A DNA stretch of 64,000 nt, taken from the NCBI GenBank assembly GCA_965153355.1, contig OZ231126.1, forward strand, positions 620,001 to 684,000. The letters are read 5' to 3'. The DNA is from Flaccisagitta enflata. Lineage: Eukaryota. Positions 18,926-58,632 of the stretch are shown one piece after another; position 1 is the stretch's first letter, and every line of letters starts with the position of its first letter. The notes under the pieces were generated by a model. It had not been told where the DNA came from, made no database searches, and saw only the letters and a program-made list of their open reading frames with translations. Position numbers and translations under genes: made by a program.

Positions 18926-21690
18926 TTATTGGTTTTACTATGAAAAAAATAGACGGACCGACGGACGAGCCGACGGACGGACCGTCAAAGCAAGGTGTAG
19001 AGTTGCGTGTCCGCGGCTAATAACTGACATAACTTTTACTTTTACCCGAAAGAAAATGGGCTATGTTTCGACAATCGCAATTGCTGATAATATAGCTCTG
19101 TGATTAAGCAATAGAGCATCGCACTGACCAAAACGCAGCGTTGTTTTTATTGTTGCTTATGTTGTTTTTATTGTTGCTTATGTTGTTTTCATTGTTGCTC
19201 TTGTTGTTTTCGATGGTGTCGTTAAAGCCCTTGGCGGTTTATTTCAAGTAATTTTTTTATTTCTTTTTCATTTTCATTTTCGATCGGTGATAAAGCGGAG
19301 ATGCATCATCTTCGTACCCTCTAAAATTGATGAATTTATGAGATAATGACATCAAACTAAAAAGGGCAGAGGAAGATCTTGACGTGCTTAAATAGCAAAT
19401 AAATAACATTTAAAGATATCACTAAAAAGCGTAGTAAGATCGAACGCATACAAGATATATTCTTACCCTCAATGTTTGGCGAATATGATAGTAATAGCGA
19501 CACCAAACCAAAGAGGGCAGAGGAATATTCTCGACGAGCTGTGCGTGAGTGTGAATGAGTGACTTTCGCCTTTGCTGACGTATCTCCAATCGTACCATTA
19601 AAGGCAAATCTCGCCATGCGAAAAAGTGCAAATGCGCTTGTTTTTTTTTTCTGTCTTTTCTTTTGAATCTCATTTCATTTTTTTCCTCTTTCACTTTCAC
19701 TCTGTTTTTTGTCACAGACAGATTTTAGATGGTCAGCGATATGCCCCTAACTAAGTGTATGTAGTTATGAGATTGTGTGAGGGGCGGTGGCATTAAAGGG
19801 ATAAATGACCTTTGCTTGGACTGATGAGGAGACATGGAGCATTTTTAGGCAAATGGGGTTGAAACAAAGATCTTAGAGCTGCAATTTCGGCCACAAGGTC
19901 GAGATCTAGGAATTTGGCCTGGAGGTAGGAATTGGGGCCTCACAGCTGCAAAACAGGTTTATTGGCTGAATTTTAGGCTGGAGGTTGGAATTTTGGCCTT
20001 GAGGCCTGGGATTTTGATTACTCATTGGCCCTAGTGGAGCCCCTGCCCAAAAATGCAATAATGTAACCTTGTGTGTTATGTTCTTCCCCCTCTTGTGGGT
20101 TCTACCTTTAAGAAATACGCCTGTAATAATGTTTTGCCTAAAAAGAAATGTATATTAAGACTCAAAGAATTTCTTTTGCTTTCCATAACAAAATATTTTG
20201 TTGGTCCCTTGGAGTTTATTAGAGTAATTCTTTACTGTCTTCATCCCCTCTTCTCTTCTTAGCTTCCCTCATTTGCCTCTCCTCATGGCCTCAGCCAATC
20301 TTCTTGCTACTTCCCTCTCCTTTTTGGGCAGCGGCCCCAGAGGTGACGGAGTCCTGTAAAAAACAGCGGGACTTTCGTTCGTCCTTCCATCTGTCCTTCC
20401 ATCCGTCCCTCCATCCATCCTTCCATCCATTTGTTCCCCCCACAAGGCCTCTCAGACCTGAAATCTGCCCTTTCAGACCTGAAATCTGCCCTCTCAGACC
20501 TGAAATCCATCCTGTCAGGCCAGAAATCTGCCCTGTCAGACCTGAAATCTGCCCTATAAGACCTGAAATCTGCCCTGTCAGGACTGAAATCTGTCCTGTC
20601 AGACCTGAAATCTGTCCTCTCTGGTGTGTAATCTACCATCTCAGGACTGAAATATGCTTTTTGGGCAGCGGCCCCAAAGGGGACGAAGTCCTGTAGAACA
20701 CAAGGGGACTTTCATTTGTCCGTCTATCCCTTCATTCGTTCGTTTGTTAGTCCCCCCCCTTCATCGGTCCCCTCAGGCCTCAAATCCAGCCTCTCAGAAC
20801 TCAAATCCAGCCTCTCAGGCCTCAAATCCAGCCTCTCAGGCCTCAAATCCAGCCTCTCAGGCTTCAAATCTGGCCTCTCAGGCCTCAAATCTTGCCTCTC
20901 TGGCCTCAGGCCTCAAACCTGGCCTCTCATGCCTCAAATTAGGCCTCTCAGGCCTCAAGTTAGCCATTAAAACCTCAATTTATTGCTCTCAGGCTTCAAA
21001 TCAGTCCTCTTGCCTTTCAAGCCTTAATCCAGCTCTCTCAAGCCTCAAGTTAGCACTCTCAAGCTTCCAATTGGTATTCTTGGGCCTTATAACAGTCTCC
21101 TTAGACCTCAGTTTAGGCTCTTGAATGCCTCCAGTCAGCCCTCTATAGCATCTCATCCACTTCTTCAGGTAGGAAGAGCGTAAGTCCCCCTGTGTTCCAC
21201 AGGACTCTGTCCCCTTCAGGGCCGCTGCCCTGCTTCCCCTCCTACCAATTCACAATCAATCAAAGCAGGGCAACGGGTATCTCTGACCACCTATTGCCCT
21301 TGGGCGACCTGTTCATACCCAAAATTATTTCTCCCAGGCCTCAAATCAACCCTCTCAGACCTCAAACTTGGCTTCTCAGACATCAATTCAGCCCTTAGGC
21401 CTCAAATCTGCCATCTCAGGGCTCAAATCTGCCCTCTCAGTCCTCAATTCAGCCATTTCAGGCCACCAATCTACGCTCACAGGCTTCAAATTAGCCATCT
21501 TAGGACACGGATAGACAGAACAAATAAAAGTCCCTCTTTGGGGCCGCTGCCCTGCTTCCTTTCACTCGAATTCACAATGATGCAAAGCAGGGCATCAGAT
21601 ATTGCTTACAACATATTGCCCTTGTGCGACCTGTTTTCCCCAAAATCTCCAATCCAATGTTCCAAAAACTCTATGGTGTCAATTTACTAA

Positions 21691-29681: not shown

Positions 29682-30148
29682 ATGGTGCTATTCGGCGCCA
29701 TAGTCAACGCCTTTTCAGCCGTGACTTCCTTCTTATCTTGTCCTTTACCATTCCTGTGTTCCACGTCTCGCGATAAAACTCCTTGTTTTCCGCCTCGAGG
29801 ATGTTTTTCAAGAACCTCCAAAGACTTTAAACATTTCATAAACGATCCTAAAAACCCGATAGAAATTAACGTTCAATTCAGACTCGTGACGAGACAGTCG
29901 TTGGGATGGGATTTGGGGGCGGGGGGTGGCGTGGGTGGTGGTAGTGGTGGCGCTAGTGGTATTAGTGGCGCCAGCGGTGGCGCAGCAGCAAGTGGTAGTG
30001 GTGCTGGTGTTGGTGCTGGTGGCGCTGGCGCCGGTAGTTTCGGAGGCGGCGCTGCATTTGGCGGATGGGTTGGTGGAGCATCCGGTGCGTCAGGCGCTTC
30101 TCTTGCAACAAACGCCGCGTTGACAGCACCTTTGTCCTCATCGTCATC

Positions 30149-30238
<90 letters not shown>

Positions 30239-30536
30239 TTTATTGGGCCATCCGGGTGCATTGTTGGGAAGATTTGACGTGGGGAGGACATCTTCCTCTT
30301 CTTCTTCTTCCTCCTCCTCCTCCTCCTCCTCCTCTTCCTCCTCCTCCTCCTCCTCCTCATCCTCTTCCATGCCCTCGTCAGCTGAGATCGCGTCTGCCTC
30401 TGGCGCTTCCGCTTTGATTCCGATGAAAGATTTAGAGACAATTCATTGGAAAGACAAAGACTCGATTTCCAAGTCCACGTTTAAAGGAAATCGGAAAACA
30501 TTTATTGTCGTACATGGATTTAGAGGGACAGTGAAG
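29682..30536 (+). CDS. Pancreatic-lipase-family triacylglycerol lipase, exon 1
   Basis: Hydrophobic N-terminus, then CFPPRGCFS...PKNPIEINVQFRLVTRQ (cf. lipase CxxxLGCF...PWSPxxVNTRFLLYT), a Gly/Ala/Ser insert, and STFKGNRKTFIVVHGF. Donor AAG|gtaata, phase 0. Confidence 0.85.
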
Positions 30537-30977: not shown

Positions 30978-31113
30978 ACAAAGAAACGAATGATTTGAAA
31001 ATACATCCCGCACCAGTTATTTGTTTCTATTTCATTGTGGGAAAAAAAATTTGTCATTTGTAGAGAAAGACAGCGACTCAAATACTCACAAAAGATTCCT
31101 ATTTCATTTTCAG

Positions 31114-31218
31114 AAAGAGTGGTTGCGAGAAATGTGTGATGCAGTTCTGAGGCTAGATGACTACAACTGCATCATCGTTGGATGGGGTGGAGGAGCCAGA
31201 ACCATTAACTACTTTCAG
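31114..31218 (+). CDS. Lipase exon 2
   Basis: ttttcag|KEWLREMCDAVLRLDDYNCIIVGWGGGARTINYFQ|gttagt. 105 nt, phase 0-0; matches the lipase NCIxVDW segment. Confidence 0.92.
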
Positions 31219-32867
31219 GTTAGTTTGGAATGAAAAGAATGAGAACTATCCATTTATGAATCGTTCTGTCCATTCGGTTGACGTTATCTACACCGCTTTT
31301 AGATCCAACTGTCGCGAAAAGAAGATATATTACACCAAAAATATTCAAAGTAATTAGTTTTTTCTTTTTTGCCCCGGATAGATTATTTGATTAAGTTTTG
31401 CTACAAGCAAAGAATGTCCCACCAACTAAAGAATTTAAGCCTCCTACTTACAATAAATGAATATTGCATGTTTCACATTGAAGGATCTTTTTCCCCAACA
31501 ATTTTTTCCTTACTTTCTTTCATAATTGTCATTTCTACACAAATTGAGCTGAATTGCTGGGATTGGTCTAGAATTTGAGAGAATTTAATGTAAGGAAAAA
31601 ATGTTCACTGATTTTTATTTTGAACAATTTTCAGACAATTTTTCAAAACTTTCCCTAATCTTGTGGTTTTTGCGGTGTTTTGGGGTCAAAATCAATTATT
31701 ACTGCATTAAATAAGTCAAATCTTTTAGTATTTTTAACAAAACTTCATTAATTCCTCATAACCAACACTGTAGGACCACTCTTGTTGCAAAAAAGAGGCA
31801 CTGCTGCTATCTAACCTCATTTTTTCCATGAGAAAAGGCTATTTTTAGCTGAAATCGACTAATTTTTGTCATGAAATTTAGAGCAAATGTATCAGCACTG
31901 GGGCTTTAATTCTTTTTTGTAACAAAACTTAATCAAATTATCTACCACAGAAAAAAAAGAATCACGTGGTTGTCTTAAGTATTTTATGAGTAATACATCT
32001 TCTTTTCGCGACAGTCCGATCTAAAAGCGGTGTATCTTTCCATTTCGTAATTCAGTGCCCATTCGTCTTTGGTAAATATTCAACATTTGTAAATTATTAT
32101 CACTCTTAAACATCCATAAGCCATGTTTCGTGACCAACCAAAACACAGAGCGACGGACAGACGGACAGATGGACAAATAGACAGACGGATGAGAGGTAAC
32201 CATTTGAATCACATGAAGAAGATCAAGGGCAAAAATGTTATTAGCGTTTGGTCAACACAGGAACAGATGGTCCTCGCGCACAAAACTCGCAAATTGAGGC
32301 TTCAATTTCCTTTTTTAACGACATTTACTTTCTATGCCGTCGCCGTTTAAGAAATGGTCATTACATGACCAACGCTGCCTTCTCTACCACCACCACTTTC
32401 TTTTTTTAACGACAATTACTTTCTACGCCTCGCCAATCAGAAATGATTTACCGTAAGAATGGACGTCACATAACCATTGCTACCCCACTTCCCTTTCCAC
32501 CACCGCCAATTTCCTTCTATAACGACATTTACTTTCTACGCCGTCGCCATTTAAGAAGTAGTTTACCGCAGAAATGGGCACCACAATACCACTGCTAGCA
32601 CACTGTCTTTTCTACCACCACCACTTTTTGCCATCGCATTCAAGGCTACCACTTCCTTCGCTCTACCAGACATTTGTTATTTTCCATCATCGGTGCCACT
32701 TACACTTCTTTCATTTTTCATATCGTCCTTGTATTGCATTGCTAATACCCAAACGCCACAGATACCGCTGTCATGACCATGCTTAAAACCACAGCGCAGA
32801 AAAGTGGATGCAAAAGCCTACGTAGCCACCCTCTAAAAAAGCTCTATTTGGAAGTGTCCAATACTTA

Positions 32868-36429: not shown

Positions 36430-36743
36430 GTCTGTCTATCTACCTGTTTGTCTCTCCATCTCGTCTGTCTGTCCATATGGTCTGTCTATCTGTCTTTTTT
36501 CAGTATGGTCGATATCTCTCTATAATCCCATTTTTTTCGGTTTATCTATTTCTTTGTGTCTGTCTATCTGTCTATCCGTCCAATCATTTCTCTTTCTCTC
36601 TGTCTATCTATTCATCTTTCTGTCTCTCTCTCTTCCTTATCTACGTCCTACACCTTTTTTCAGCGTATCTATTTTTGTGTGACTGTCTTTCTGTCTCTTA
36701 TCATCTTTCTCTCTCTCTCTCTCTCCCTTATCTATCCATCCAG

Positions 36744-37002
36744 GCGATGTCCAACTCTCGCGTTGTTGGCGCTGAAGTCCAACTTCTCGTCGACTCATTG
36801 GCCAATTTTGGCGCCACTCGCGACTCCTTCTGGTTGGTCGGCCATTCCTTAGGAGCCCATATCATGGGCTTTGTGGGCAGGAGAGCTCCCGGCATTGGCA
36901 GGATCACTGGGCTGGATCCCGCTAGTCCGGGTTTTGAAGGGAAACCGGAGGCGGCGAGACTAGACTCGAACGACGCGCTGTTTGTTGATGTAATTCATAC
37001 TG
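36744..37002 (+). CDS. Lipase exon 3 (catalytic Ser and Asp)
   Basis: atccag|AMSNSRVVGAEV...LVGHSLGAH...RITGLDPASP...LDSNDALFVDVIHT G|gtgagt. Contains the GxSxG nucleophile elbow and the LDPA catalytic Asp. Confidence 0.95.
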
Positions 37003-37199: not shown

Positions 37200-37279
37200 A
37201 TGAGTGTGTGTGAGTGTAACAGTGAATAATTTAGTATTGTTATTGTTTCCATCATCATCAATCCTATATTCTTTTGCAG

Positions 37280-37442
37280 ATGTGGATGGATTGGGCGCTG
37301 CCGAGCCAATGGGTCACGTGGACTTTTACCCAAACGGTGGTCGAAATCATCCCGGATGTCACAAAGTTGACCCGGATCCTGAAGAGGGATTCCTGGCAGG
37401 AGCCAAACGGGCCGTCGTTTGTGATCACAAGAGAGCTCATAG
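37280..37442 (+). CDS. Lipase exon 4 (lid and catalytic His)
   Basis: ttgcag|(D)VDGLGAAEPMGHVDFYPNGGRNHPGC...VVCDHKRAH AG|gtgagt. Phases 1 and 2 fit the neighbouring exons. Confidence 0.95.
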
Positions 37443-38276
37443 GTGAGTTGTCTTTGATCTTTGTCGTCAAGAAAACGTCATAAATAAGTTGATTTTTGAA
37501 ATCCTTTCTTTCCTCTAATCAAATTATTTATTCCTTCTTTATTTTTACCAATCATTGATGGGCCATCAAAACAGTCAGTTCTTGATACAGTCGAACCTCG
37601 CTTGAGCGCACCTACTTATATGGCATTTCCGCATATAAGGCATGAAGTTTTCAGTCTCTTGAAAAAAAAATTGATATTCATTTCTATATTGGCTTTAAGC
37701 CAGCTTCGCTATAAAGCATGATTTTGTCCAGTCTTTTGACATTGTCAAGGGATTGGACATGCGCTCTAGTAAAGCTGAACTGTAGTTGAGTTCATTTTAG
37801 TTAAGCTAAGAAGCCAATCTCTGATACTTTTCTTTCTAACCCCAAAAAAACTACTTTGAAAAATTCAGAGCTTCAGTTTACACTTTCAATAGATAATTTT
37901 GGCTGTTTTGAATTCTGATTGTTGTTAGGCTTCATTGCCTTATCCTCACTACGGCTTTCCATCATTATTCAACCTCTTTTGCAAATCGTTTATCTTCACC
38001 CCCTCCCATTCCCCCTTTTCCCTTCCCATTCCCCCTTTTCCCTTCCCATTCCCCCTTTTCCCCTCCCATCCCCCCTTATCCCCCGTCCCCCCTCACCCCC
38101 TTACCCCCTCCCATTCCCCCTTTTCCCCTCCCATTCCCCCTTACCTTCTCCAATCCCCCTTTTCCCCTCCCATTCCCCCTTACGTGCCCCCATCCCCCCT
38201 CACCCCCTCTCATCCCCCCTACCCCCCCCCATTCTCCCCTCTGCCCCCCCCCCCCCGGCCATCATCTCGTTACAAG

Positions 38277-38556
38277 GTTTTTCATCGACTCCATCTTGGG
38301 CAAAGCCGAGAAACGTCCTTGTCAATTCAAATCCCGCACTTGCGCTAACGAGACGGCTTTCTTATCCGGTCAATGCCTTCGTTGCACCAACCGGAACTGC
38401 GTGTCCTTTATGGGACCGGATGCCGTCAAGATGCGCAGCCGCAACTTTTATTCTTCCGTGAAGGCGTTTCTGCTGACGTTGGACGCGGCTCCGTACTGCG
38501 CAGAAAACTATTTCCTGTTTTCGGTTCGGTTGAGACCGGATTTTAACTTGCAAAAG
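38277..38556 (+). CDS. Lipase exon 5
   Basis: After a C-rich tract, tacaag|(R)FFIDSILG...CQFKSRTCANETAFLSGQCLRC...FMG...FLLTLDAAPYC...LQK|gttggt. The Cys pattern matches the end of the lipase catalytic domain. Confidence 0.88.
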
Positions 38557-39012
38557 GTTGGTAAATGACATGTTAATAAAAGACGGTGCATGAATTACCA
38601 TTGACTTTAATCATGTTGATTTTATGTCGATTCTTATCGTCTAAGAATAATCAAATTAAAGTACCTTGTATCTGGATAAGGTCATTTCATAGAATAAAGG
38701 ATTTGATTCAATTTCTTTCCTCTCCGAATTGAGGAAGACAATTGGGACAATGTTGATCATTCTCTCGATCTTTGCATTCATCCATATTTAGAACATTCAT
38801 CCATATTCTGTTAGTCTCAGAACCTTTGCAGCCGCCTTCAAAAATCTTTGATAGTCTGAAGTGTCATGTGAAAAAGTTTTTTTTCTAAATTTTTAGGTGC
38901 GCCAAAGCACCTCTATGATAGCTGTGTCTGTCGGTCGGTCAGTCTGTCGGTAACGCATCACGACGATCCACCCGGCGCACCTTATTGGTTTCTCTATCAC
39001 CATCTCTATCAG

Positions 39013-39697
39013 GGTCAAATCTTCCTGCATCTGACGCTTGAAAATGGCGAAGAAGAAGAGAGAGAAGTGACTTTGACTCCTCACAATGAAATCAAACCTT
39101 AAAGTGTCATTCGTTATATTCATTTTTAGGGTCAAATTTTCCTTCATCTGACGCTTGAAAATGGCGAAGAAGAAGAAAGAGAAGTGACATTAACTGCTCA
39201 CGATGAAATCAAACCTTAAAGTGTCATTCGTCATATTCATTTTTAGGGTCAAATCTTCCTTCATCTGACGCTTGAAAATGGTGAAGAAGAAGAGAGAGAA
39301 GTGACTTTGACTCCTCACGATGAAATTAAACCTTAAAGTGTCATTCGCTATATTCATTTTTAGGGTCAAATCTTTCTTCATCTGACGCTTGAAAATGGCG
39401 AAGAAGAGGAAAGAGAAGTGACTTTGACTCCTCACGATGAAATTAAACCCGGAAGTGTCATTCATTATATTCATTTTTAGGGTCAAATTTTCCTCCATCT
39501 GACGCTTGAAAATGGAGAAGAAGAGGAAAGAGAAGTGACTTTGACTCCTCACGATGAAATCAAACCTTAAAATGTCATTCGTTATATTCATTTTTAGGGT
39601 CAAATCTTCCTTCATCTGACGCTTGAAAATGGCGAAGAAGAGGAAAGAGAAGTGACTTTGACTCCTCACGATGAAATTAAACCTGGAAGTGTCATTC
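39013..39697 (+). repeat. Six-copy 117-bp tandem array containing a splice acceptor and the start of lipase exon 6
   Basis: GGTCAAAT starts at 39013, 39130, 39247, 39364, 39481 and 39598 (exact 117 spacing), each preceded by AG. Confidence 0.95.
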
Positions 39698-39771
39698 AAA
39701 AAGTCGTTGCCATGAAAGCGGACATTCTTCAGCCAGCAAATGAGCCGCCGACTTTTGGACTTGAAGCGCCG
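39598..39771 (+). CDS. Lipase exon 6 (PLAT domain start; last copy of the 117-bp array)
   Basis: tttttag|GQIFLHLTLENGEEEEREVTLTPHDEIKPGSVIQKVVAMKADILQPANEPPTFGLEAP|gtaaaa. 174 nt, phase 0-0; the only array copy without an in-frame stop. Confidence 0.75.
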
Positions 39772-40748
39772 GTAAAATTTGCCCCCGCATGAATCAAAAT
39801 GTTGATGAGAGAATCTACGCATCGCATTTTCATCGGACAGAACCACTGTGTGCAAGGACAATGTTTGTAAACATAGATAGAGCAAATGTGTCACCAATTG
39901 TCACAGAGATGTGGAAGCGATTGACCGCTTCCATTTTGTAGTTCAAAAACTAGTAGCTATCCCACCCACCAAAATGGAAGCGGTAGCGGAAGCGGAAGCG
40001 GTGGAAGCGGCATGAAAACATCCACATCCCTACCAACTGAGCAATCAACTAAAGAAGGCGTCATTTTAGGATAAGGCTTAAGAAAAGGAGCTCTCAATGG
40101 GAACTCAGGTTCAACAAGGACTATGTTTGGAAACATAGATAAAACAACTAACTAGTCATCCAAGGATCGCACATGCTGGAAGTGATCCAGTGAAGAAGTG
40201 GAGTGAGAGCAGGGCAGCGGCTCCAAAGGGCTGAGGTCCTGTAGTACACAGGGGGGAATTTCCAGACTTCCTTAGATGACTGATTTAGGCCACTGAAGCT
40301 GTATTTGAAGGCTGGACGGCAGAATCAAGGCTTGGAGAGCAGATTTGAGGTTTGGAGGGCAAATATGAGCCTCAGAGGGCTAATTTGATGCTTGCAGGGC
40401 AGAGTTGAGGTCTGGAGGTCAGAATTGAGGCGGGGGGGGGGGGGGCGATTAGAATCTTGGGCTAGATTGAGGGCTGGGAGGGTAAATCTGAGGCCTTGAT
40501 GGCCTAGGGGGGGGGGGGACAGAAGGACGAACAGACGGAAGGACGGAAGGACGGACGTCTGGAAATTCCCCCCTTTATTCTACAGGACATTGGCCCTTTG
40601 GGACCGCTGCCCAAAAAGGTGCCATTTTAGGCTTACTGGTCAGGAAAAGGGACCCCCAATGCTACACTTATGCAATTGTCTGCGTTTCGAAATCTCACTG
40701 TCTCGGCCTAAATAATTCATTTTCATTGAATTTAAACATTTGTGCCAG

Positions 40749-41180
40749 GTGCTGGATAATGGCGCTGGAAGTGAAAACAACAACAACAACAATTACAACA
40801 ACAACAACAACAACAACTACAACGCGTTCCGTCGTCCATTTTTGCGCGTGAAGATTCGTTTCAGGCACAATTGGGGCTCCTCTTCCGTGTCTTCTTGGTA
40901 CGACAGAAGTCTCATCAAAATCCAGTCAGCTTCAGTCCAAAAACTCTCTTCAGTCGGCGGAAGTCAAGTCGGGGCCGAAAAAATGAGCTTCTGCCCAATT
41001 TCTGGGACTGTGTCCTCCACTTGGGTGCATATGGCTGATTGCGTGGATCTAGCGCCGAGTAGAGATGGAGGGAGAGGAGTAGGAGGAAGAGTTGGAGGGA
41101 GAGTTGGGGGGAGAGGGGGAGGAAGAGGAAGAGGGGGATCAAGAGGAGGGGGAAGAATCAGAGGAAGGGTTAGAGGTTGA
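40749..41180 (+). CDS. Lipase exon 7 (PLAT domain end plus RGG tail)
   Basis: gccag|VLDNG...poly-N...FLRVKIRFRHNW...KMSFCPISG...ADC, then GGR repeats to TGA. The seven exons sum to 2268 nt (755 aa + stop). Confidence 0.75.
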   Translation: MLDNGAGSENNNNNNYNNNNNNNYNAFRRPFLRVKIRFRHNWGSSSVSSWYDRSLIKIQSASVQKLSSVGGSQVGAEKMSFCPISGTVSSTWVHMADCVDLAPSRDGGRGVGGRVGGRVGGRGGGRGRGGSRGGGRIRGRVRG

Positions 41181-43318: not shown

Positions 43319-43818
43319 CTAAAAAGAACAAAATTCGCAATGGTCAGTGGTACAGTTGAGCCCTGTAATAGCGTCAACGTCAAGGGACTAGCAAATAATA
43401 TCTGTTATAGCTAAATTTCTATTATTCTATTATTGGCAACAATTAAAATAATAAGTGAGTCTTAACTCGTAGTGAATCATGATAAATCGTGGGAAACAAT
43501 AAGGCCTGTTAGGTTTGGGATTAAGGCTTTTGGCCATGATGATTCTTACATCAAAGCCAAATACTGTTGAACCCCGCTCTAACAGGGGACCCACAATTTT
43601 CCTCTGTTATAAGCGGACTTCTGTTATTGCCAACAACGGCAATAAAAGAAGATAATTTGAAGGGACAATGAATTTGCATGTGTTATAGGCGGAATTCCGT
43701 TGATGGCGGGTCCGTTAATGCGGTGTTCAACTGTAGATGATTCCCCAAATGTCATTAGCCCCTACAAGGTCACTGCCCCAAAATCGTACCGTGCAATCCC
43801 ATGAATATCATCACTTAC

Positions 43819-44268
43819 CTCTTTCAAATCCATTTGACATGAGCGCGATCAGCAAATTGAGCATAACCACGACGGCGAAAACGTGATACAAGCCAAGAAA
43901 CAATTCCCCGATCCAACTCGGCGACAGAGGCTCATTCGGGGCGAAATTGAAATCTTTTCCAATATCTTCTTTGGTGTAATTGTACTCTTTCATAATCTCG
44001 AAGAATGTGTCGTTGTCGAGTCCCGGTTGGCATAATCTCTCTCTCAATTTCAACATGTCATCTGGGTCTAAATACTCATCGTGATCATCGGCGTTCTCCT
44101 TCGGCTTTCTCAGATTGGGCAAGAATATCTTCAAATTTTTCATGTTGCTGTAACCAAACAGAGTCCAAAACAGACTCTTTAACGTTTCGATGAAATCGGG
44201 GAATTTTGATTCGATGAGTTGGCAGATTGGGAGGTTAGTGAGTGGACTCAGCGTGATTTGCCACATGC
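43819..44268 (-). CDS. TRPC-like channel, exon 4 (pore and S6)
   Basis: FIETLKSLFWTLFG is the TRPC LFW pore helix; WIGELFLGLYHVFAVVVMLNLLIALMSNGFER is S6. Donor G|gtaagt, phase 1. Confidence 0.92.
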
Positions 44269-44294
44269 CTTGACAATTGAAGTGAGTAGAATGA

Positions 44295-45144
44295 GGGCGT
44301 GTTTCCAGTGACAACTAAAAACGCGTTTCTTCCCGTTAAACGCCTTTACAGCGTGAACAGATATTTATGAATTTCTATGGTCCCACGAGGGAGTGAGCAA
44401 AGTGAGTGAGGAAACCTGTGAGTGAGCGAGCCTGTGAATGGAGCCAGCGAGCAAAGCGAGTATAACAGGGTGTGCAAAAAAATCTCATACTAGCCATCAA
44501 ATCCATACAAAAGACACCTTGATTTGGAGAAATTCCTTAGGATTAATGTTCAAAATTGAAAAATAGGTCATTTTTCAAACTTTAGGAAAGGAAAAATGAT
44601 GAATGGTAGACAGCAGAATAGGTTTTTAGACCAACAGGGGTGTAAGTAAAAAGTCACAAAAGATTTTTTTTAATGAAAAAACATTTATCTCTGGTCTAAG
44701 TTTGATTGATATATTACTTTTTAAGACTGAAAACCCTCCTAGATGACCTACCTAACTCCCCTTGATAACGATCCATCTAGGAGCCAATAAAGTTGAAAAA
44801 ACCTTCATTTTTAAACAAACACAGCTCTGCAAATAAAATAATGTCAAAATCTGATTTCCCGTTTGTTCTCAAGTATATTTCATGGCCATGTTTAAAAATT
44901 ATATCAGATGTTCATAGATACTACTTTTAGTATGACTAACTGAGATACTCTGGTTCAAATTTTAACTCATAACTCCCATAACAAGTATGGTTTTCATGCT
45001 ATAGAGCAAGCATGACATTTTTCGCTCACCCTGTTAGCAAGGTGAAGCACTGCGAAGCGAGTGAGCTGAGTGAACGGAGTGAGCGAACAAACAGGGCGAG
45101 TGACCAAGTGGCCCAAGTGGTTGTCTGTAACTAGAAACACGCCC
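44295..45144. mobile_element. PIF/Harbinger-like MITE with a nested Tc1/mariner-like element (about 44466-45033)
   Basis: TIRs gggcgtgtttccag / ctagaaacacgccc with an exact 3-bp TSD TGA (44292-44294 and 45145-45147). The inner element has cagggtgtgc / gctcaccctg ends. Superfamily labels are inferred from TSD and termini only. Confidence 0.75.
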
Positions 45145-47600: not shown

Positions 47601-49587
47601 TAGTCATTTTTCATTGATTGGGTTGATGGAGTTGATTAATTTGACTCAATTACAAAAGTCACCACTTTTTCCAGTGGTCCCGGCCTGTAACTGGGTGGGT
47701 TTCCACGGCCTCCAATACCTTATTAAGCTGATTTATTCAACAATTCATAAAAGTCAATCTAGTCAACTAAATCATTTTATTCATTTCTTATATTTCTCCC
47801 TATTCAGTCATGTTAATAAGGAGTCAGGTCAATTCAGTTTTTTATGTCTCGCACGCGACTTAAAGGTGTTGGCCTTGTTTAACTTGAATCGGCGTATCCT
47901 TAATTTCCCAATCAGCAACAAACAAGGTCATTAGACCTAAGTCGCGTGCTTCAGCACTTTCAAAAGATGTCATGCAGACAGACGGACAAAAAGTTTTTTT
48001 TGAAAAGCACTTTATAAAAGGCTTTTTACTCCTCCAAGTTTCTTCTCTGCCATCTAGAGCCATCAAAAACGCAATAAAAAGCCTTTAAAACGACTTTGTG
48101 ACGGACCAACCGACCGACGGACCGACCGACCGACCGACGGACCGACCGACCGACCGACCGACCGACCGACCGACAAAGTGGCTTATAGAGTCGCGTAGCA
48201 CGCGACTAAAAAATCATTGTCTCGTTTTCTTTTTTTTTTCTTTTTATAATAAATACTTTCAGAGAAATATTTATGAATGCAGGCGACAATTTTTTGTTTA
48301 ATCAAGAATTCATCAAAAATGTGATCTGATGGGGCCAGGCGGAAAATTTGTTGTCAACCTCTTTAGACATCAAAACTCTTTCCATTTTGGTTGTCCTAAG
48401 AAGATTTGATATGAAAACCACTTAATCAGATTTTAGTAATACAGCTGGCGGACCTTAAATCCGTTGGAATTAGCGGGACCCCTCTTGATTTAGTTGATTT
48501 CAACAGTTTCAACAGGATATTTACTATAGTTTATATAGCAAAAAATATAAATTACAATTTTACTCAAAATACGTCATCTTCGATTTTTTTCATTTTCTGG
48601 CCATTAAGGGCCCTAAGTGAGCCGACTTTGGTGAAACATTAATCTCAGATACTCCCCGCCCCTAAGGGGCCCAAAATTGGGGCAAAAAAAATTTGACGTT
48701 AAATCCGTTGGTTTTAGCGGGGGCAGGGTCACTTTTTTAAATCACCATGCTAAAACCGCTGATTTTAACGGGTTTAACGGCAAATTCCCCTATTTTGGTC
48801 CTCCACATACATATCCACTATCTTGAGACCCTATTTAATAACAAAAGAGAAAAAGTGAGCACACATGAGCACACATGAGCAAGCATGAGCAAGCATGAGC
48901 AAGCATGCTAAAACTGCTGATTTTAACGGGTTTAACGGCAAATTCCCCTATTTTGGTCCTCCATATGCATATGCAGTATCTTGAGCACCTATTTAATAAC
49001 AAAAAAGAATAAGTGAGCACACATGAGCACACATGAGCAAGCATGAGCAAGCATGAGCAAGCATGCTAAAACTGCTGATTTTAACGGGTTTAATGACAAA
49101 TTCCCCTATTTTGGTCCTCCACATCCATATCCAGTATCTTGAGACCCTATTTAATAACAAGAAAGAATAAGTGAGCACGCATCAGCACACATGAGCAAGC
49201 ATGAGCAAGCATGCTAAAACCGCTGATGTTAACGGGTTTAATGGCAAATTCCCCTATTTTGGTCCTCCACATGCATATCCAGTATCTTTAGACCCTATTT
49301 AATGACAAAAAAGAATAAGTGAGCACACATGAGCAAGCATGAGTAAGCATGAGCAAGCATGCTAAAACCGCTGATTTTAACTGGTCTAATGGCAAATTCC
49401 CCTATTTTGGTCCTCCTCATCCATATCCAGTATCTTGAGACCCTATTTAATGAAAAAAAAAAGAAAAAGTGAGCACACATGAGCACACATGAGCAAGCAT
49501 GAGTAAGCATGAGCAAGCATGCTAAAACCGCTGATTTTAACAGGTTTAATGACAAATTCCCCTATTTTTGTCCTCCACATCCATATC

Positions 49588-49718
49588 CAGCGGCGTATAT
49601 GAGGGGGCTTCCGCAGCTGCCGCGGCAGCTGTAAGATTTTGGACAAGAATAATTTCGGTCAATGGGAGTCAAGAAAACAGAGAGAGAGAGAAAAAAAAAA
49701 GAGGGGAAAGGAGGAGAA

Positions 49719-49806
<88 letters not shown>

Positions 49807-50191
49807 GACAGAGACAGACAGAGAGAGAGAGAGATATTCAGAACACGAAACCTGTTTTTCATGGTAGAAACAATGGGCCCCATAGGATATGTGACTATCC
49901 ATGCCATGCTTTGGACTGCTTTCTTCTTTTTGATCAAATCACTCTTTTGTAAACTTATAAACTGATATACTTATTAGTCATACACTGATTTAAAAGTTGT
50001 TGTTTTACATGGTTTTATTATCTAATAGTAATGTATAGTAATAGATAGTCAGGTATAGTCATATATAGTTATATGTAATAGTGTATAGTTAATGATAGTA
50101 TCATATAGTAATACATAGGTCGGACAGGGACTATGTCGGGACATAGATTGGAGGCGGAAGCTGCTTTAGTCTTGGCTTGGATATGCCACTG
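49588..50191. mobile_element. hAT-like non-autonomous element inserted in the satellite arm
   Basis: TIRs cagcggcgtatat / atatgccactg, flanked by 8-bp near-identical tccatatc / tctatatc. The satellite unit resumes after it. Confidence 0.65.
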
Positions 50192-52338
50192 TCTATATCC
50201 ATTATCTTGAGACCCTATTTAATGACAAAAAAGAAGCACACATGAGCACATGAGCACACATGAGCAAGCATGAGCAAGCATGCTAAAACCGCTGATGTTT
50301 ACGGGTTTAATGGCAAATTCCCCTATTTTGGTCCTCCACATGCATATCCAGTATCTTGAGACCCTATTTAATAACAATAAAGAATAAGTGAGCACACATG
50401 AGCACCCATGAGCAAGCATGAGCAAGCATGAGCAAGCATGCTAAAACTGCTGATTTTAATGGGTTTAACGGCAAAATCCCCTATTTTGGTTCTCCACATG
50501 CATATCCAGTATCTTAAGACCCTATTTAATGATAAAAAAGAATAAGTGAGCACACATGAGCACACATGAGTAAGCATGAGCAAGCATGCTAAAACCGCTG
50601 ATTTTAACGGGTTTAATGGCAAAATCTCTATTTTGGTCCCTCACATGCATACCTAGCATCTTGAGACCTTGTATGATAACAAAAAAGAGTAAGTGAGCAC
50701 ACATTAGCAAGCATGAGCAAGCATGAGCAAGCATGCTAAATCTGCTGATTTTAATGGGTTTAATGGCAAATTCCCCTATTTTGGTTCTCCACATGCATAT
50801 CCAGTATCTTGAGACCCAATTTAATGACAAAAAAGAATAAGTGAGCACACATGAGCACACATGAGCAAGCATGAGCAATACGCTGTCCTATATACACTCA
50901 AGTGCCTAATAATGCTCTGTTAAGATGAAAATCCTATCACACATCATGAGATAGACACATACTAATTGTCCGAGGATCTAGAACAAGCTACAACCTTAAC
51001 TAACACTCATTTTTTACTTTTTAGAAAAGGAAATGTAACAAGTAAGCACACATACGCAAGCATGAGCATGAATGCTACATCTGCTGATTTTATTGGGTTT
51101 AACATAGAAATCCCCTATTTTGGCCCTCTACATGCTTATTTAACATCATGTGACCCTCTTTGGTGACAAAAAAGAGTGAGTGAGCAGTGAGCACACATGA
51201 GCAAGCATGAGCAAGAATGCTAAATCCACCGATTCTTACAGGTTTAACATTAAAATCCCCAATTTTGGTCCTCCACATGCTGTTTTGACATCATGAGACC
51301 CTCCATGGTTACAATAAAGAAGGTAACTATGGCAAAGAAAAAAAGCGAACACTTTGTTTTGCTAGTTTCTGCTCAACTATGGGCCTGAACCATAGAAAAT
51401 CCATGACCGTTTTAAAGCTCTGCAAAAAATCTTCCAAATGCGACGTTGCTGGTCATTGTAGCTTTATTCGTTTAGAAATGGCAATGGTTTGAAGAAAAAA
51501 ATCGCCGATTGAAAAAAGTGCTTATTCCAACTTTTTTTCCAATGAGCGATTTTAGTCTTTCCGTTTTTGTCAGTAATGCAGCTCAGGATTGTCTTAGCTA
51601 CTCGTTATCCATGAGCAAATTAAAGAGCTTCAAATTTTCTTTAAAATGGCGCCAAGAATGATTTTTTAACTCAATGCGTTTAGTTTTTATGTTAGAATAA
51701 AGATAACCCATGAAAGTGGCGTAGTGAATTTCCAAATTCTTGACCACCTGTCTTCATTCTAATGCCATTTCTAAACGGATAGAGCTAGAACATTCAGCAA
51801 GGTCTCACTTGAAAGATCTTTCGCAGATCTTTAAAATGGTCATGGATTTTGCTATGTTTTTCTCATTGCTTGTATGTGAAACATTGACAAACAAGTTGTT
51901 CGCTTTTTTTTTTTGCCATAGTTACGTTTCACGGTCTCGCAGGCGGAGTATGAGGAAAATTAGTCATTTTTAAAATTAGACAAACCTAGGAAATCTATAT
52001 ATCATTATAAAGCTTATACATTATTGTAAATGAATTCACTTTTGGATTTTGTTAGCAGGGTCCAATTCTTATGTAAATTAGGTTATTATGAAAAAATATC
52101 AAATTGGCCTTTATTTCAAAATTAAACCATCTAGAGAAGTAAGATTGACCTGCATTTGTGCCAATAGGCTGGGGCAAACGTGTGTAGACTACATCAATCA
52201 TTTGGCAGTTGGTCAGTTGGTCCGTTGGTCTGTTGGTCCCTTAGTCCGTCAGTCCGTTGGTCTGTTGATTCATTGGTTGGTCTGTGAACAGACTCCCAAA
52301 TACTTCCCTGAAGTGTGGAAACGCACCTTTAAGATACT

Positions 52339-52417
<79 letters not shown>

Positions 52418-53394
52418 CGTGCTGGAGTGGGTTGGTCAACCCTACCCACTTTTCATCTTTGTTCTTTGTTCCCTTCTTTCTCTCCTGAAATAAAAGACAC
52501 TTTATCTGTTTTCATCTTTCTCTCATTCTTTCTTTCTTGTCTTCTTTCTTTTTCTTTTCTTTTTTAGTCGCGGACACCCAACTCTACACCTTGCCGTGTT
52601 GGTCAGTTGGTAGGACGGTTGGTAGGTCGGTCCGTCCGTCCATCACATTTTTTAAATTCCAAGCGGTTTTTGCATTACTGCTCTTGCCCAACCATCCGCG
52701 ACTGGATTGCCATGTATCCGGCCTTGTTTCATTGTTGTTTTTTTTTTCCTTTTTTGGGCAGCAGCTCGAAGGGGCCGATGACCTTTGCTCTCACACATAT
52801 GGGAGATTTCTCCTCCTCCTCCATCTCCTTCTCCTTCTCCATCCTCCCCCCCCCACTTGCCCTAGGCTCCATATCTAGCCTCGAGGTCCCATTCCTAGCC
52901 TCGACGCCCCGTTCCTAGTCTCAAGGCCCCATTCCTAGCCTCGAAACCCCATTTCTAGCCCCGAGGCCCTATTCCTTGCTTCAAGGTCCCATTATTAGCC
53001 TTGAGGCTCCAGTTCACACCTCGCAGCTCCTGTCCCAGCCTTGAGGCTCCAATCCCAGCTTCCAGGCTCTAACTCCGGCCTAGAGGCTGGGACCCCAGCC
53101 CTGCGGCTCCAACCCTAGCCAAAAAGCTTCATTCTGGCCTCGTAGCCCAAATCCCAGCCTCAATGCTCAAATCTTAGCCCAGCATAGGTCATCGGCTCCT
53201 TCGGGGCCGCTGCCCCTCTCACCTTCACATGTTACATACACTAACTTGGGGGCAACGGGTACCGCTGACCATCTGACGCTTTTGCGACTATTCATTGTAG
53301 GTTTTCATTCTAGGTTTCTAGTCTAGTCTGACGATCTTTATATGCAGCTTTGTCTTCATCATCATCATCATCTTCTTCTTTTTCTTTCTCTTTT

Positions 53395-53905
53395 TGGGCA
53401 GCGGCCCCAAAGGGCCGATGTCCTGTAGGAAACAGGGGCTAAAAATTACGTCCGTCCGTACGTACCCCCCCCCTCCGAAGCTTCTCAAGCCTCCCCGGAC
53501 TCAAATCCAGCCTCTCAGGCCTCAAATCTGGCCTCTCGGGCCTCAAATCTGGCCTCTCAGGCCTCAAATCCAGCCTCTCAGGCCTCAAATCCAGCCTCTC
53601 AGGCCTCAAATCCAGCCTCATGGGCCTCAAATTCAGCCTCTTGGGCTTTTAATCCAGCCTCTCAGGCCTCAAATTCCCATTGAATAAAATGGCAAATTGA
53701 CAAAAAATTGAGAAAAATTCCAAATTCCCAATGAATATTATGAAAAATTACCCCAAATATGCTCTCTCAGGACGTATGGAAATTCACCCGTGTCCTACAG
53801 GACATCGGCCCTTTGGGGCCGCTGCCCTGCTCCCACTCCACCTCTTTAGCTGATTACTCCAAGCAGGGCATCGGGTACCGCTGACCATGTGCGATCCTTG
53901 GATGA
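53395..53905. mobile_element. Helentron/HINE-like family B (representative copy)
   Basis: Inverted repeats gggcagcggcccc / ggggccgctgccc enclose a 21-bp (ctcaaatccagcctctcaggc)n array and are followed by gggtaccgctgacc. Related copies at about 4853-5310, 5440-6005, 20324-21640, 40205-40617, 52755-53290 and 63143-64000. Confidence 0.6.
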
Positions 53906-53982
53906 CTAGTTCTTTTTCTGCTTCTTCTTCTTCTTCTTCTTCTTCTTCTTCTTCTTCTTCTTCTTCTTCTTCTTCTTCTTCT

Positions 53983-55082: not shown

Positions 55083-58000
55083 ATAAAAAATACTGAGTTG
55101 AATTTTTATATTTTGCTATGAAATAATGATTTAAGCATTCCCAAAGACAAATCCATCGGTTCTTCTGACTTAACATTTCATTTTGACCGTCCAAAGCCTC
55201 CAAAGTTGCGTGACTCCAAGAAAACCCGACGGAGCTATGAGAAATGTGTTCACACTTTAGTGCATGTAATCACTAAAATGCTCATATCTCCAGAACGCCT
55301 AAAGCTATGGTCTTGAAATTTTGAATGTAGACGCAGAATTTCATGCTCTTTCAGACCATACTTCATGGCGGGGCCCCTGGTATCATGTGACTGGTCAAAT
55401 CACCATGACACATAGCGTGACATGAGCGTGACAGGGTGTGAACACATTTCTCATAGCACATTCAAAACGTTATATCTCCGGTCTGAGAAATGGGAAAGTC
55501 GTAAAATTTGGCATGAACACCCTCACATGACTTTTTTAAACGGGCAAAAAAGAAAAAGTTTTGAAATCCAAAGTAATGTGCCTTTTTTTTTGGTTTAGTC
55601 AATCTTTTTCAAAAAAATCGTCAAAATGGGTGATTAAAAAAAAATCAGAAGTTGTAAATTTACAATATAAAAAAGTGACCTATCATTGTGAGATTTTAGA
55701 TGCTTTGAACCACAACCAAGACGAATGAAAATGACCCTTTCTCTCATACCATTTTCTGTTTTTTGTTATCTTTTACCCCTATGAAAGTCAGTGTGACCTA
55801 TGTGAGACATACCAAAATCACTAAAATTAGGCCTTTTTTGGGCCATAGAGCCTCATAATATGTCGCCAATGGAGACAAAAATTTGTTCCCTAGGTACTAA
55901 CTGATACCCCTGAACAGTTAATGGCACTTTTCTCACAAAATTGTTTTGGTAAGGATACTCGATATACCAGTTAATCAGGTTATCTCCCTGGCCCGGGGAA
56001 TCCTGAATCCTACCAGAACAAGTGAGCACTCATGAGCAAGTAAACAAGGCCGTATACAAGAGCCAAAGTTGCGTGCGGGTGGGCAGGGGCAGTGATGAAA
56101 TTGACCAACTAGACGGTTTGGCAGGAGCAGTAACCCCCAAACTGCCTGTAAACGCTAAAAAAAGCTAAACGTTACGGATGGACGGACCAACGGACTGACT
56201 GACAGACGGACAGAGTGGGTTGTAGAGTGGCGTGCACGAGATTAAAAAAAGAATAACAAGGTTGGATACAGGGCAATCCAGTCACGGAGGGTTGGGCAGG
56301 AGCAGTTATGCAAAAAAACACTCCCTGTTTTAGAAATATTTCCTACCAACCCACATGGCAAGTTTTAAAAAAAAAACACAGCAAGTTCTAGAGTCGCAAG
56401 TCCTCTATGGTAACAAAAAAAACAAGTAAGCACACATACGCAAGCATGAGCATGAATGCTACATCCACTGATTTTATTGGGTTTAAAAGGGGACTTTGAA
56501 GTTAAACCTGCTAAAATAAGCGGATTTAGAATTCTTGTTCATGCTTGCTTATGTGTGTTCACACACTCTTTTTTGTCACCATAGAGGATCACATGATGTT
56601 AAATAAGCATGTGAAGGGTCAAAATAGGAGACTTCTATGTTAAACCCGTTAAAATCAGCGGATTTAGCATTTGTGCTCATGCTTGCTCATGCTTGCTCAT
56701 GTGTGCTCTCTTGCTCTTTATCGTCACTTTAGAGGGTCTCATGATGTTAAAAGACATGTGAAGGACCAAAATAGAGGATTTTTATGTTAAACCAGTTGAA
56801 ATCAGCGGATTTAGCTTTCTTGCTCATGCTTGCTCATGCCTGCTCATGTGAGCTCACTTGCTTTTTTTTGTCACCATAGAGGTTCTCATGAAGTCAAATA
56901 AGCAGGTGAAGGAGCAAGATAGGGGATTTTGCCGTTAAACCCGTTAAAATCAGCGGTTTTAGCATGCTTGCTCATGCTTGCTCATGCTTGCTCATGTGTG
57001 CTCATGTGTGCTCACTTATTCTTTTTTGTCATTAAATAGGGTCTCAAGATACTGGATATGCATGTGGAGGACCAAAATAGGGGAATTTGCCGTTAAACCC
57101 GTTAAAATCAGCGGTTTTAGCATGCTTGCTCATGCTTGCTCATGCTTACTCATGTGTGCTTATGTGTGCTCACTTATTCTTTTTGTCATTAAATAGGGTC
57201 TCAAGATACTGGATATGCATGTGGAGAACCAAAAAAGGGGAATTGACCGTTAAACCCGTTAAAATCAGCGGTTTTAGTATGCTTGCTCATGCTTGCTCAT
57301 GCTTGCTCATGTGTGCTCATGTGTGCTCTTTTATTCTCTTTTGTCATTAAAAAGGGTCTCAAGGTACTGGATATGCATGTGGAGGACCAAAATAGAGGAA
57401 TTTGCTGTTAAACCCATTAAAATCAGCAGTTTTAGCATGCTTGCTCATGCTTGTATATGCTTGCTCATGTGTGCTCATGTGTGCTCACGTATTCTTTTTT
57501 GTCATTTGATAGGGTCTCAAGATACTGGATATGCATGTGGAGGACCAAAATAGGGGAATTTGCCGTTATACCCGTTAAAATCAGCGGTTTTAGCATGCTT
57601 GCTCATGCTTGCTCATGTGTGCTCATGTGTGCTCACTTATTCTTTTTTGTCATTAAATAGGGTCTCAAGATACTAGATATGCATGTGGAGGACCAAAATA
57701 GGGGAATTTGCCATTAAACCTGTTAAAATCAGCGGTTTTAGCATGCTTGCGCATGTGTGCTCATGTGTGCTCACTTATTCTTTTTGTCATTAAATAGGGT
57801 CTCAAGATACTGGATATGCATGTAAAGGACCAAAATAGGGGAATTTACCATTAAACCCGTTAAAATCAGCGGTTTTAGCATACTTGCTCGTGTGTGCTCA
57901 TGTGTGCTCACTTATTCTTTTTTGTCATTAAATAGGGTCTCAAGATACTGGATATGCATGTGGAGGACCAAAATAGGGGAATTTGCCGTTAAACCCGTTA

Positions 58001-58632
58001 AAATCAGCGGTTTTAGCATGCTTGCTCATGCTTGCTCATGTGTGCTCATGTGTGCTCACTTATTCTTTTTTCTCATTAAATAGGGTCTCAAGATAGTGGA
58101 TATGCATGTGGAGGACCACAATAGGGGAATTTGCTGTTAAACCCGTTAAAATCAGCGGTTTTAGCATGGTGATTTAAAAAAGTGACCCTGCCCCCGCTAA
58201 AACCAACGGATTTAACGTCAAATTTTTTTTGCCCCAATTTTGGGCCCCTTAGGGGCGGGGAGTATCTGAGATTAATGTTTCACCAAAGTCGGCTCACTTA
58301 GGGCCCTTAATGGCCAGAAAATGAAAAAAATCGAAGATGACGTATTTTGAGTAAAATTATAATTTATATTTTTTGCTATATAAACTATAGTAAATATCCT
58401 GTTGGAACTGTTGAAATCAACTAAATCAATTTTTCTTAAAATCTTTTTTTCATTTCTAAACGGAATTAGCCAGCGAGCTATGTTCGGTCTTGAATGGAAA
58501 TTTCTTTGTCATAGTTTATGATCTGTTTTTATTTCTTTAACGGATATTGAAGTCTAGCTGCTGGCTGCTGTAATCATGGTTAGGTTTTCTTATATTTTTT
58601 CTCCTAGATAGTAATGCCCTCTCGATGTAAAC

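Follow-up and report, generated by a model that had tools for sequence, protein, structure and literature searches.

The original report of "mirage" minisatellites is said to be that of Canestro et al. in 2002. In amphioxus, these arrays are described as tandem duplications of an intron/exon boundary that leave regular splicing undisturbed (PMC3087553, PMC3902484), and the mirages that these sources describe so far are from cephalochordates. For globin mirages (BflGb6 and BflGb9), concerted evolution within clusters is reported together with evidence of regular splicing from reverse transcription-polymerase chain reaction (RT-PCR), as well as a model in which mirage units become new exons or introns (PMC3087553); mirages in Adh (Adh3), troponin C, and PGBD5 are reported to give no aberrant messenger RNAs (mRNAs) (PMC3902484). 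Here, we describe an array of six tandem units in a pancreatic-lipase-family gene of Flaccisagitta enflata (assembly GCA_965153355.1, contig OZ231126.1, positions 620,001 to 684,000 of the forward strand); this whole stretch of 64,000 nucleotides (nt) is referred to as the window, and all coordinates given are positions within it. The units repeat the acceptor of intron 5 with the start of exon 6, all five internal units would run into a stop codon if they were read, and the six differ from each other almost exclusively at silent sites.

Judged by its sequence, the lipase array matches a mirage-type minisatellite point for point in structure and so adds a new case to an established class. The mirage of BflGb6 also repeats the 3′ end of an intron together with the 5′ portion of the next exon head-to-tail; its units measure 150–160 base pairs (bp), number six and three in two haplotypes, and share 81–100% identity (PMC3087553), while PGBD5 carries three units of 108 bp (PMC3902484), as compared to six units of 117 bp with approximately 90–98% identity here. 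Both systems have the authentic exon at the array edge and AG signals kept in the units. The two differ in that normal splicing was shown by RT-PCR in amphioxus, whereas the lipase array is known from DNA alone, and in that haplotype length variation is reported for BflGb6, whereas the array of one haplotype is described here.

Tandem Repeats Finder identified the 117-bp period at 39011–39697 (5.9 copies, 92% matches, 0% indels, score 1178). Each of the six units opens with AG/GGTCAAAT (a slash marks the splice junction here and below); the only occurrences of AGGGTCAAAT in the window are at 39011, 39128, 39245, 39362, 39479, and 39596, and a 35-nt unit probe allowing up to three mismatches gave six matches, as compared to none in 100 shuffles. 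A unit consists of AG, 29 codons (= GQIFLHLTLENGEEEEREVTLTPHDEIKP), codon 30, 11 bases that the true exon also has, and a T-rich tail of 15 nt; its length of 117 nt equals 39 codons and is a multiple of three. Homology covers the first 102 nt of the 174-nt exon 6, and the internal units are without the 3′ two-thirds and the donor of this exon. Units 1, 2, 3, and 5 have TAA as codon 30, whereas units 4 and 6 have GGA; the frame of unit 4 stays open up to a TAG (39478–39480; codon 39) that is part of the next acceptor. A pyrimidine tract and AG are present at all six acceptors. The unit tail TCGTTATATTCATTTTTAG occurs five times, always within the array, and the 15-nt tail of units 2–6 is unlike both flanks, i.e., the 24 nt before unit 1 and the exon sequence past unit 6. 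The joint between units is present five times, with unit-specific variants.

Divergence among the units is concentrated at silent sites of the lipase frame. All six variable sites in codons 1–18 are third positions and synonymous; codons 1–29 contain 12 variable sites, including ten third positions (all synonymous) and two first positions (P23A in unit 2 and D25N in unit 1), both located downstream of the donor-like GAA/GTGACT. Counted from the majority base, these sites represent 14 changes (ten transitions and four transversions), 12 synonymous and two nonsynonymous. Over these 87 nt, a transition would be silent in 36% of possible cases and a transversion in 14%, and random placement of ten transitions and four transversions gives at least 12 synonymous changes with an exact P = 1.2e-5; binomial tests on third positions yielded P = 5.4e-4 for 10 of 12 sites in codons 1–29 and P = 1.4e-3 for 6 of 6 sites in codons 1–18. 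Pairwise synonymous divergence (dS) among units ranges from 0.12 to 0.52, with nonsynonymous divergence (dN) ≤ 0.03. The synonymous:nonsynonymous counts in the other frames are 3:11 and 2:12 on the forward strand and 1:13, 1:13, and 9:5 on the reverse strand; the bias is thus confined to the lipase frame among the six. Past codon 29, variable sites are spread over all codon positions. Codons 19–29 alone present four of six variable sites at third positions (binomial P of about 0.10, calculated by hand), and the sequence therefore cannot place the end of the constraint at GAA/GTGACT. The 26-nt non-coding tail shows 4 changes in 26 sites versus 12 in 29 at third codon positions (P = 0.06). The silent excess is a real, frame-specific signature of purifying selection on the units, with chance excluded at about 1e-5. 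An earlier note on this DNA had described six 117-bp units with a common AG start, TAA in copies 1, 2, 3, and 5, GGA in copy 6, and a fourth copy open to an in-frame TAG, and had counted an all-synonymous pattern over 18 codons and 12:2 over 29 codons with both replacements after GAA/GTGACT; the repeat search and exact matches, the sequence itself, and our recount agree with it on each of these. Its argument that dead intronic copies should lack such a bias is statistically supported by the exact test and by the restriction to the lipase frame, and the formal comparison of synonymous and nonsynonymous change among copies that it had called for shows a significant excess.

Two other sources of the silent excess were considered and rejected. 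CpG hot spots do not account for it, as only one of the ten variable third positions lies in a CpG by inspection (GGC followed by G). A gene on the opposite strand would have to use the reverse-strand open reading frame (ORF) at 39190–39900 (236 amino acids), which is open across units 2–6; with one silent and 13 replacing changes, it is not coding, and a protein search found no homologue of it. In the reverse frame that scored 9:5, the only ORF of at least 35 amino acids across the array is 38939–39091.

Our favoured explanation, to which we assign a probability of about one half, is that this is a mirage array in which the last acceptor alone gives functional mRNA and in which the silent-only divergence arises by exchange with the selected terminal unit. 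The productive mRNA would join 38556 to 39598; use of an internal acceptor leads to reading into TAA (units 1, 2, 3, and 5) or TAG (unit 4), and translation of internal units would not be what produces the silent-only divergence. Unequal crossing-over or gene conversion would move sequence in both directions between the translated terminal unit and the internal units: after a misaligned exchange, the exon start that is functional in one haplotype would sit internally in the recombinant, and internal unit starts, along with their acceptor tails, would be promoted to the functional position. Every unit would recently have been, or would in future be tested as, a real exon start, with replacements purged and silent changes allowed to pass. 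The TAA codon, which has only 13 nt of homology to its right, would persist because most exchanges would fall to its left. Four site patterns, shared by units 4, 5, and 6, by units 3, 4, and 6, by units 1 and 3, and by units 2 and 5, form three mutually incompatible pairs when worked by hand. Unit 6 carries no private variants, as compared to ten in the internal units, and its mean distance to the others is 5.8 differences per 102 nt, as compared to 8.6 per 117 nt for the internal units among themselves. Long-period tandem arrays are common in the window.

Independent contigs bear on the reality of the array and on the allelic diversity of the species, which its association with metagenome runs marks as marine. 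The tandem arrangement is real, because a contig from run X3 (a marine metagenome from a different study; record 18), aligned at 39255–39401 with six differences, crosses the joint between units 3 and 4 (107 and 40 nt), and contigs from run X1, which may be the source of the assembly, anchor both array edges without any difference (38910–39057 and 39665–39833). The number of six units is the count in the assembly; the contigs cover the two edges and one joint. It has to be weighed whether the array or its copy number results from misassembled diverged haplotypes, such that the "copies" are different alleles of a single exon start. Alleles of this species are highly diverged, their differences within a functional exon would be silent, which is what is seen, and the BflGb6 mirage was itself misassembled in a draft genome (PMC3087553); however, the unit joint is found five times with unit-specific variants, the X3 contig spans one such joint, the X1 contigs anchor the edges, and TAA in place of GGA is impossible as an allele of the functional exon. 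We therefore consider such an artefact very improbable.

Among the matches listed, X1 and X2 contigs over the unique exons 5–7 presented 12 synonymous and two nonsynonymous allelic differences, with silent:replacing counts of 4:0 for exon 5 (135 nt, all at third positions), 1:1 for exon 6, and 7:1 for exon 7. This pattern indicates that the downstream exons are translated and constrained and, therefore, that an in-frame mRNA is made. Further contigs showed 9–15 differences per 166–181 nt; the silent diversity of the species is very high, and dS between units is, by rough estimate, of the same order as the allelic silent divergence. In an X2 contig anchored in the unique part of exon 6 (39622–39761), codon 29 of the terminal unit is CCC, a variant private to unit 4 in the window. 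Exchange would account for unit 6 being placed as in a star and nearly identical to unit 4, for the incompatible pairs, for the CCC variant that unit 4 shares with the X2 terminal unit, and for the allelic order of dS. The favoured explanation also draws support from the constraint on the downstream exons 6 and 7, from the single copy of the segment in the two relatives described below (P0014 and P0031), and from the normal splicing of amphioxus mirages.

X1 and X2 differ strongly in contig depth over the units, although depth does not equal copy number. In X2, depth was 450–680 over units 1–2 (39022–39209) and unit 6 and 10–38 over units 3–5 (39210–39585), and the X2 contigs at 39079 and 39081 all presented GCA (Ala) at codon 23; other unit variants seem to make up the array in the X2 individual. 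A second X1 contig over exon 5 (record 2; 38275–38455) showed 15 differences in 181 nt alongside one with none, and represents either a very diverged second haplotype or a lipase paralogue. A protein-pattern scan of metagenome contigs for other haplotypes or relatives confirmed none of 462 candidate stretches, and an exact 20-mer search found none.

The host gene belongs to the pancreatic lipase family; it is intact if the reading frame crosses the array correctly, and only then. Exon boundaries (Table 1) were read from splice sites in the sequence. Exons 3, 4, and 5 each score above the Pfam cut-off of 27 bits for PF00151, the motifs GHSLG, GLDPA, and CDH were found in exons 3 and 4, and columns S206, D229, and H307 are invariant or nearly so in a 51-sequence alignment; the catalytic Ser/Asp/His of the family thus appears conserved, and lipase activity is predicted. 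Exon 5, which aligns with lipoprotein lipase residues 248–316, ends in a phase 0 donor (AAAAG/GTTGGT at 38556/38557); exon phases are consistent, and exons 6 and 7 joined in phase 0 give a complete ORF. Exon 7 encodes a poly-Asn linker derived from (AAC)n, the remaining beta domain, and a Gly/Arg-rich tail. The linker is read from an (AAC)16 microsatellite (40776–40823), and the tail (41061–41180) from GGA-rich simple sequence; at the position of the linker, the relative P0014 has an unrelated low-complexity sequence.

Table 1. Coordinates in the window of the mapped lipase exons and of the array units.
Feature	Position	Strand	Description
Exon 3	36744..37002	+	GHSLG active-site serine motif; PF00151 E = 1.3e-28; 69% identity to P0014
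Exon 4	37280..37442	+	End CAT AG/GTGAGT, split codon completed by G at 38277; PF00151 E = 4.4e-12
Exon 5	38277..38556	+	End of catalytic domain and first strand of C-terminal beta domain; PF00151 E = 4.5e-07
Unique part of intron 5	38557..39010	+	Last 24 nt, TTTCTCTATCACCATCTCTATCAG, are the acceptor tract before unit 1
Unit 1	39011..39127	+	AG and 29 codons, TAA at 39100–39102, tail; D25N; donor-like GAA/GT at 39066/39067
Unit 2	39128..39244	+	TAA at 39217–39219; P23A with two private silent changes within 8 nt
Unit 3	39245..39361	+	TAA at 39334–39336
Unit 4	39362..39478	+	GGA at codon 30 like the true exon; 2/102 positions differ from unit 6
Unit 5	39479..39595	+	TAA at 39568–39570; tail is the acceptor of the true exon 6
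Unit 6	39596..39697	+	102 nt of homology; AG and start of the true exon 6; no private variants
Authentic exon 6	39598..39771	+	58 codons, phase 0 at both ends, donor GCCG/GTAAAA; second and third strands onward of C-terminal beta domain
Exon 7, last coding exon	40749..41180	+	Acceptor GTGCCAG/GTG, phase 0; TGA stop at 41178–41180

Exon 3, searched against 1.84 billion representative proteins, returned 3828 matches, with P0014 (615 amino acids) as the best full-length relative. This protein aligned by tblastn to the forward strand of the window in eight pieces (29685–29909, 30423–30533, 31096–31221, 36741–37001, 37276–37443, 38320–38556, 39598–39735, and 40830–41054). Exon 5 is 57% identical to P0014 residues 366–444; the piece in exon 6 corresponds to residues 445–490 (41% identity, E = 8e-04; blastp E = 3e-09), and that in exon 7 to residues 533–603 (E = 8e-11). 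A search with exon 5 against longer and similar-length proteins found no homologous protein. The repeated segment is single-copy in both relatives that match exon 6, P0014 and P0031 (plus four near-identical members of the P0031 cluster). These proteins probably come from transcripts, since contigs of 1.9–2.9 kb encode their 534–615 amino acids.

In the AlphaFold model of P0014 (pLDDT 77.7), the C-terminal part is all-beta, and model residues 31–598 align with chain residues 1–449 of 1gpl, 1w52, and 1lpa (Z = 44–45, 418–430 residues); hornet venom phospholipase A1, which is without the C-terminal domain, aligned to model residues 53–429 only. This superposition, done on the relative rather than on the window's own protein, suggests a C-terminal beta-sandwich of the pancreatic-lipase type. 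The earlier note had called this domain PLAT: Pfam PF01477 gives no match for exon 6, P0014, or P0031 at E values up to 1 or for exon 7 up to 0.1, so that the label is not supported at the level of the sequence family, while the fold behind it is, as the model superposes on two-domain pancreatic lipases. The 30 repeated codons correspond to P0014 residues 445–474, which include strands 443–453 and 458–462 and the following loop.

The fold of this domain also bears on whether the internal acceptors are used and the units are read up to their stop. In that case, 38556 would be spliced to unit 1, 2, 3, or 5, giving proteins that end in ...EIKP*; these could represent a lipase without most of the C-terminal domain or isoforms targeted for decay that tune expression, and selection would act directly on the 29 codons and the tails. 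The silent-only divergence across all 29 codons, beyond the first 18, would be expected, as would the identical TAA in four units, the conservation of the acceptor tails (4 changes in 26 sites), and the pyrimidine tract and AG at all six acceptors, and the hornet enzyme illustrates that family members without the C-terminal domain exist. However, with four to five units redundantly encoding one peptide, selection on each should be weak, the product would, according to the model, keep approximately three of eight sandwich strands and is unlikely to form a stable fold, and the downstream exons 6 and 7 are themselves constrained. In addition, the mirage literature, as represented by PMC3087553 and PMC3902484, reports no aberrant mRNAs, and the RNA reads, none of which falls on exons 5–7, show no such isoforms. 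We consider this use of the internal acceptors unlikely.

Alternatively, each unit could contribute a 54-nt micro-exon, GQIFLHLTLENGEEEERE, ending at GAA/GTGACT and followed by a 63-nt intron, which would place up to five extra 18-residue beta-hairpins in frame within the C-terminal domain. Consistent with such micro-exons, the unit is 39 codons long, the sole GT before the stop that is common to all units lies in phase 0, all six variable sites of the 18 codons are silent with both replacements beyond them, and the downstream frame would be kept open, as the constraint on exons 6–7 requires; furthermore, the 18 residues would form a complete hairpin, i.e., strands 443–453 and 458–462 of the P0014 model. 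Purine-rich runs can act as splicing enhancers, and a purine-rich GAA run lies directly 5′ of the candidate donor. This donor is weak, though, with A at −1 and C at +5; none of the seven introns mapped in the lipase gene (approximately 277 to 5500 nt) is near 63 nt; the third-position bias persists in the supposed intron (four of six sites); and the transcript-like related proteins have one copy of the segment. Ten extra strands would be incompatible with a PLAT-type sandwich, and we estimate that the coincidence of unit length and GT phase would arise by chance in about 1 in 9 cases. Micro-exons thus appear distinctly improbable. Pairing of the docking/selector type known from Dscam was also considered: a 13-nt pair with 92% complementarity links 38564–38576, at the start of intron 5, to 39567–39579, in the tail of unit 5, but it was rejected because its energy of −10.6 kcal/mol is about the shuffle mean of −10.4 kcal/mol and 43% of shuffles are as good.

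Several observations also weigh against turnover of the array as the cause of the signature. No RNA read lies on any junction, and it is an assumption that, of six similar acceptors, the last is used constitutively. The case for exchange rests on few sites, and recurrent mutation could give incompatible patterns at such silent divergence. Low variation in the tails (4/26 versus 12/29, P = 0.06) also fits internal acceptors that are used directly, and reading of the units would likewise predict the absence of indels and a unit length that is a multiple of three. At 41–69% identity per exon, the relatives are far removed, and their single copy is compatible with lineage-specific use of the units; finally, the 15-nt tail matches neither flank, leaving the origin of the first duplication unexplained. 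Overall, splicing of the internal units, either as in-frame hairpin micro-exons or as decoy acceptors whose TAA-ended isoforms set the output of the gene, seems somewhat unlikely, and both micro-exons and truncating last exons, the two mechanisms offered by the earlier note, gain no support from the analysis and are less likely than exchange, which that note did not consider. The cause of the signature would be either array turnover, with indirect selection, or actual use of the units.

RNA reads were available from a polyA run, X5, of which 12.2 million reads (about 6% of the run) were searched; 326 reads could be placed, none of them on exons 5–7 or the array, and these data are uninformative on splicing. 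All 326 reads fall on the interspersed repeat of intron 6 (approximately 40432–40713). This very high-copy repeat (39868–40620) presented a summed contig depth of approximately 4 million in X1 and X2, as compared to about 100 for unique sequence, and has related copies at approximately 4848–5239, 20319–20939, and 53390–53911; X5 reads at approximately 40526–40619 run on into unlike sequence, and members of this repeat family are therefore transcribed elsewhere. Upstream of unit 1, the segment 38834–39021 contains a GTCGGTC-rich low-complexity element (38911–38951; contig depth of about 3e5), with similar sequence at 46192 and 48149; a transposon behind the differing flank before unit 1 was considered and rejected, as the short low-complexity match at 38911–38951 was all that was found. 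The window is rich in micro- and minisatellites, and long-period tandem repeats are frequent in the genome; examples include a 115-bp repeat of 2.2 copies (32375–32627) within the large lipase intron, a 29-bp minisatellite of 67 copies (12573–14536), and 148/158-bp satellite arrays of up to about 11 copies in opposite orientations (48746–51320 and 56534–58168). The reverse strand has an ORF of 167 amino acids (43811–44314) whose match to Ion_trans is weak and falls short of the cut-off (PF00520, E = 1.8e-4); this ORF probably represents an exon from an ion-channel gene lying in convergent orientation to the lipase gene.

Mirages have so far been treated as curiosities ignored by the spliceosome and as possible raw material for introns or exons, and the lipase array adds a case in which seemingly untranslatable units bear the mark of purifying selection. 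In the text of PMC3087553, the unit alignments of which are in its supplements, "synonymous", "stop codon", and "reading frame" do not occur, and we did not find silent-site bias in mirage units described in the literature, supplementary unit alignments and the original report aside; going by this search, silent-only divergence is undescribed for the class. If array turnover is the cause, the locus would represent a compact natural case of concerted evolution exposing non-coding copies to selection, in a species of very high diversity. If the units are used, the array would represent the first functional mirage and show the birth of an exon or intron in progress; splicing of the internal units would place a mirage under direct selection, and copy-number variation would then alter the protein or its dosage. 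The locus also raises the question of how the splicing machinery chooses one among six near-identical acceptors 117 nt apart, and it carries a warning for gene prediction, as choosing the first acceptor yields a truncated model.

Besides mirages, three known systems invite comparison. Tandemly duplicated mutually exclusive exons are copies of whole exons with both splice sites, each giving a full-length protein; the alternative oxidase of oyster is reportedly one example. The lipase array resembles them in having tandem exon copies that have their own acceptors and are alike at the protein level, but its units are without the 3′ two-thirds and donor of the exon and four of the five internal ones carry TAA at codon 30. 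We rejected this class for the array, given homology over 102 of 174 nt and stops at codon 30 in four internal units or at codon 39 in the fifth. In the second system, introns are gained by tandem duplication of an AG/GT segment, as in the Rogers model and as described by Hellsten et al. in 2011 (PMC3265369). There, as here, splice signals are doubled by a short intragenic duplication, and splicing can remove the surplus copy without altering the peptide; the lipase array, however, duplicates an existing acceptor rather than an exonic AGGT and shows no new intron. The third system comprises the chicken immunoglobulin pseudo-V segments, which are donor pseudogenes kept open by gene conversion. 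Both there and, as proposed, in the lipase array, untranslated copies would be under a coding-type constraint through repeated copying into a translated gene, although the former serves a programmed somatic diversification, whereas the process proposed for the latter is a germ-line turnover of the array without known purpose.

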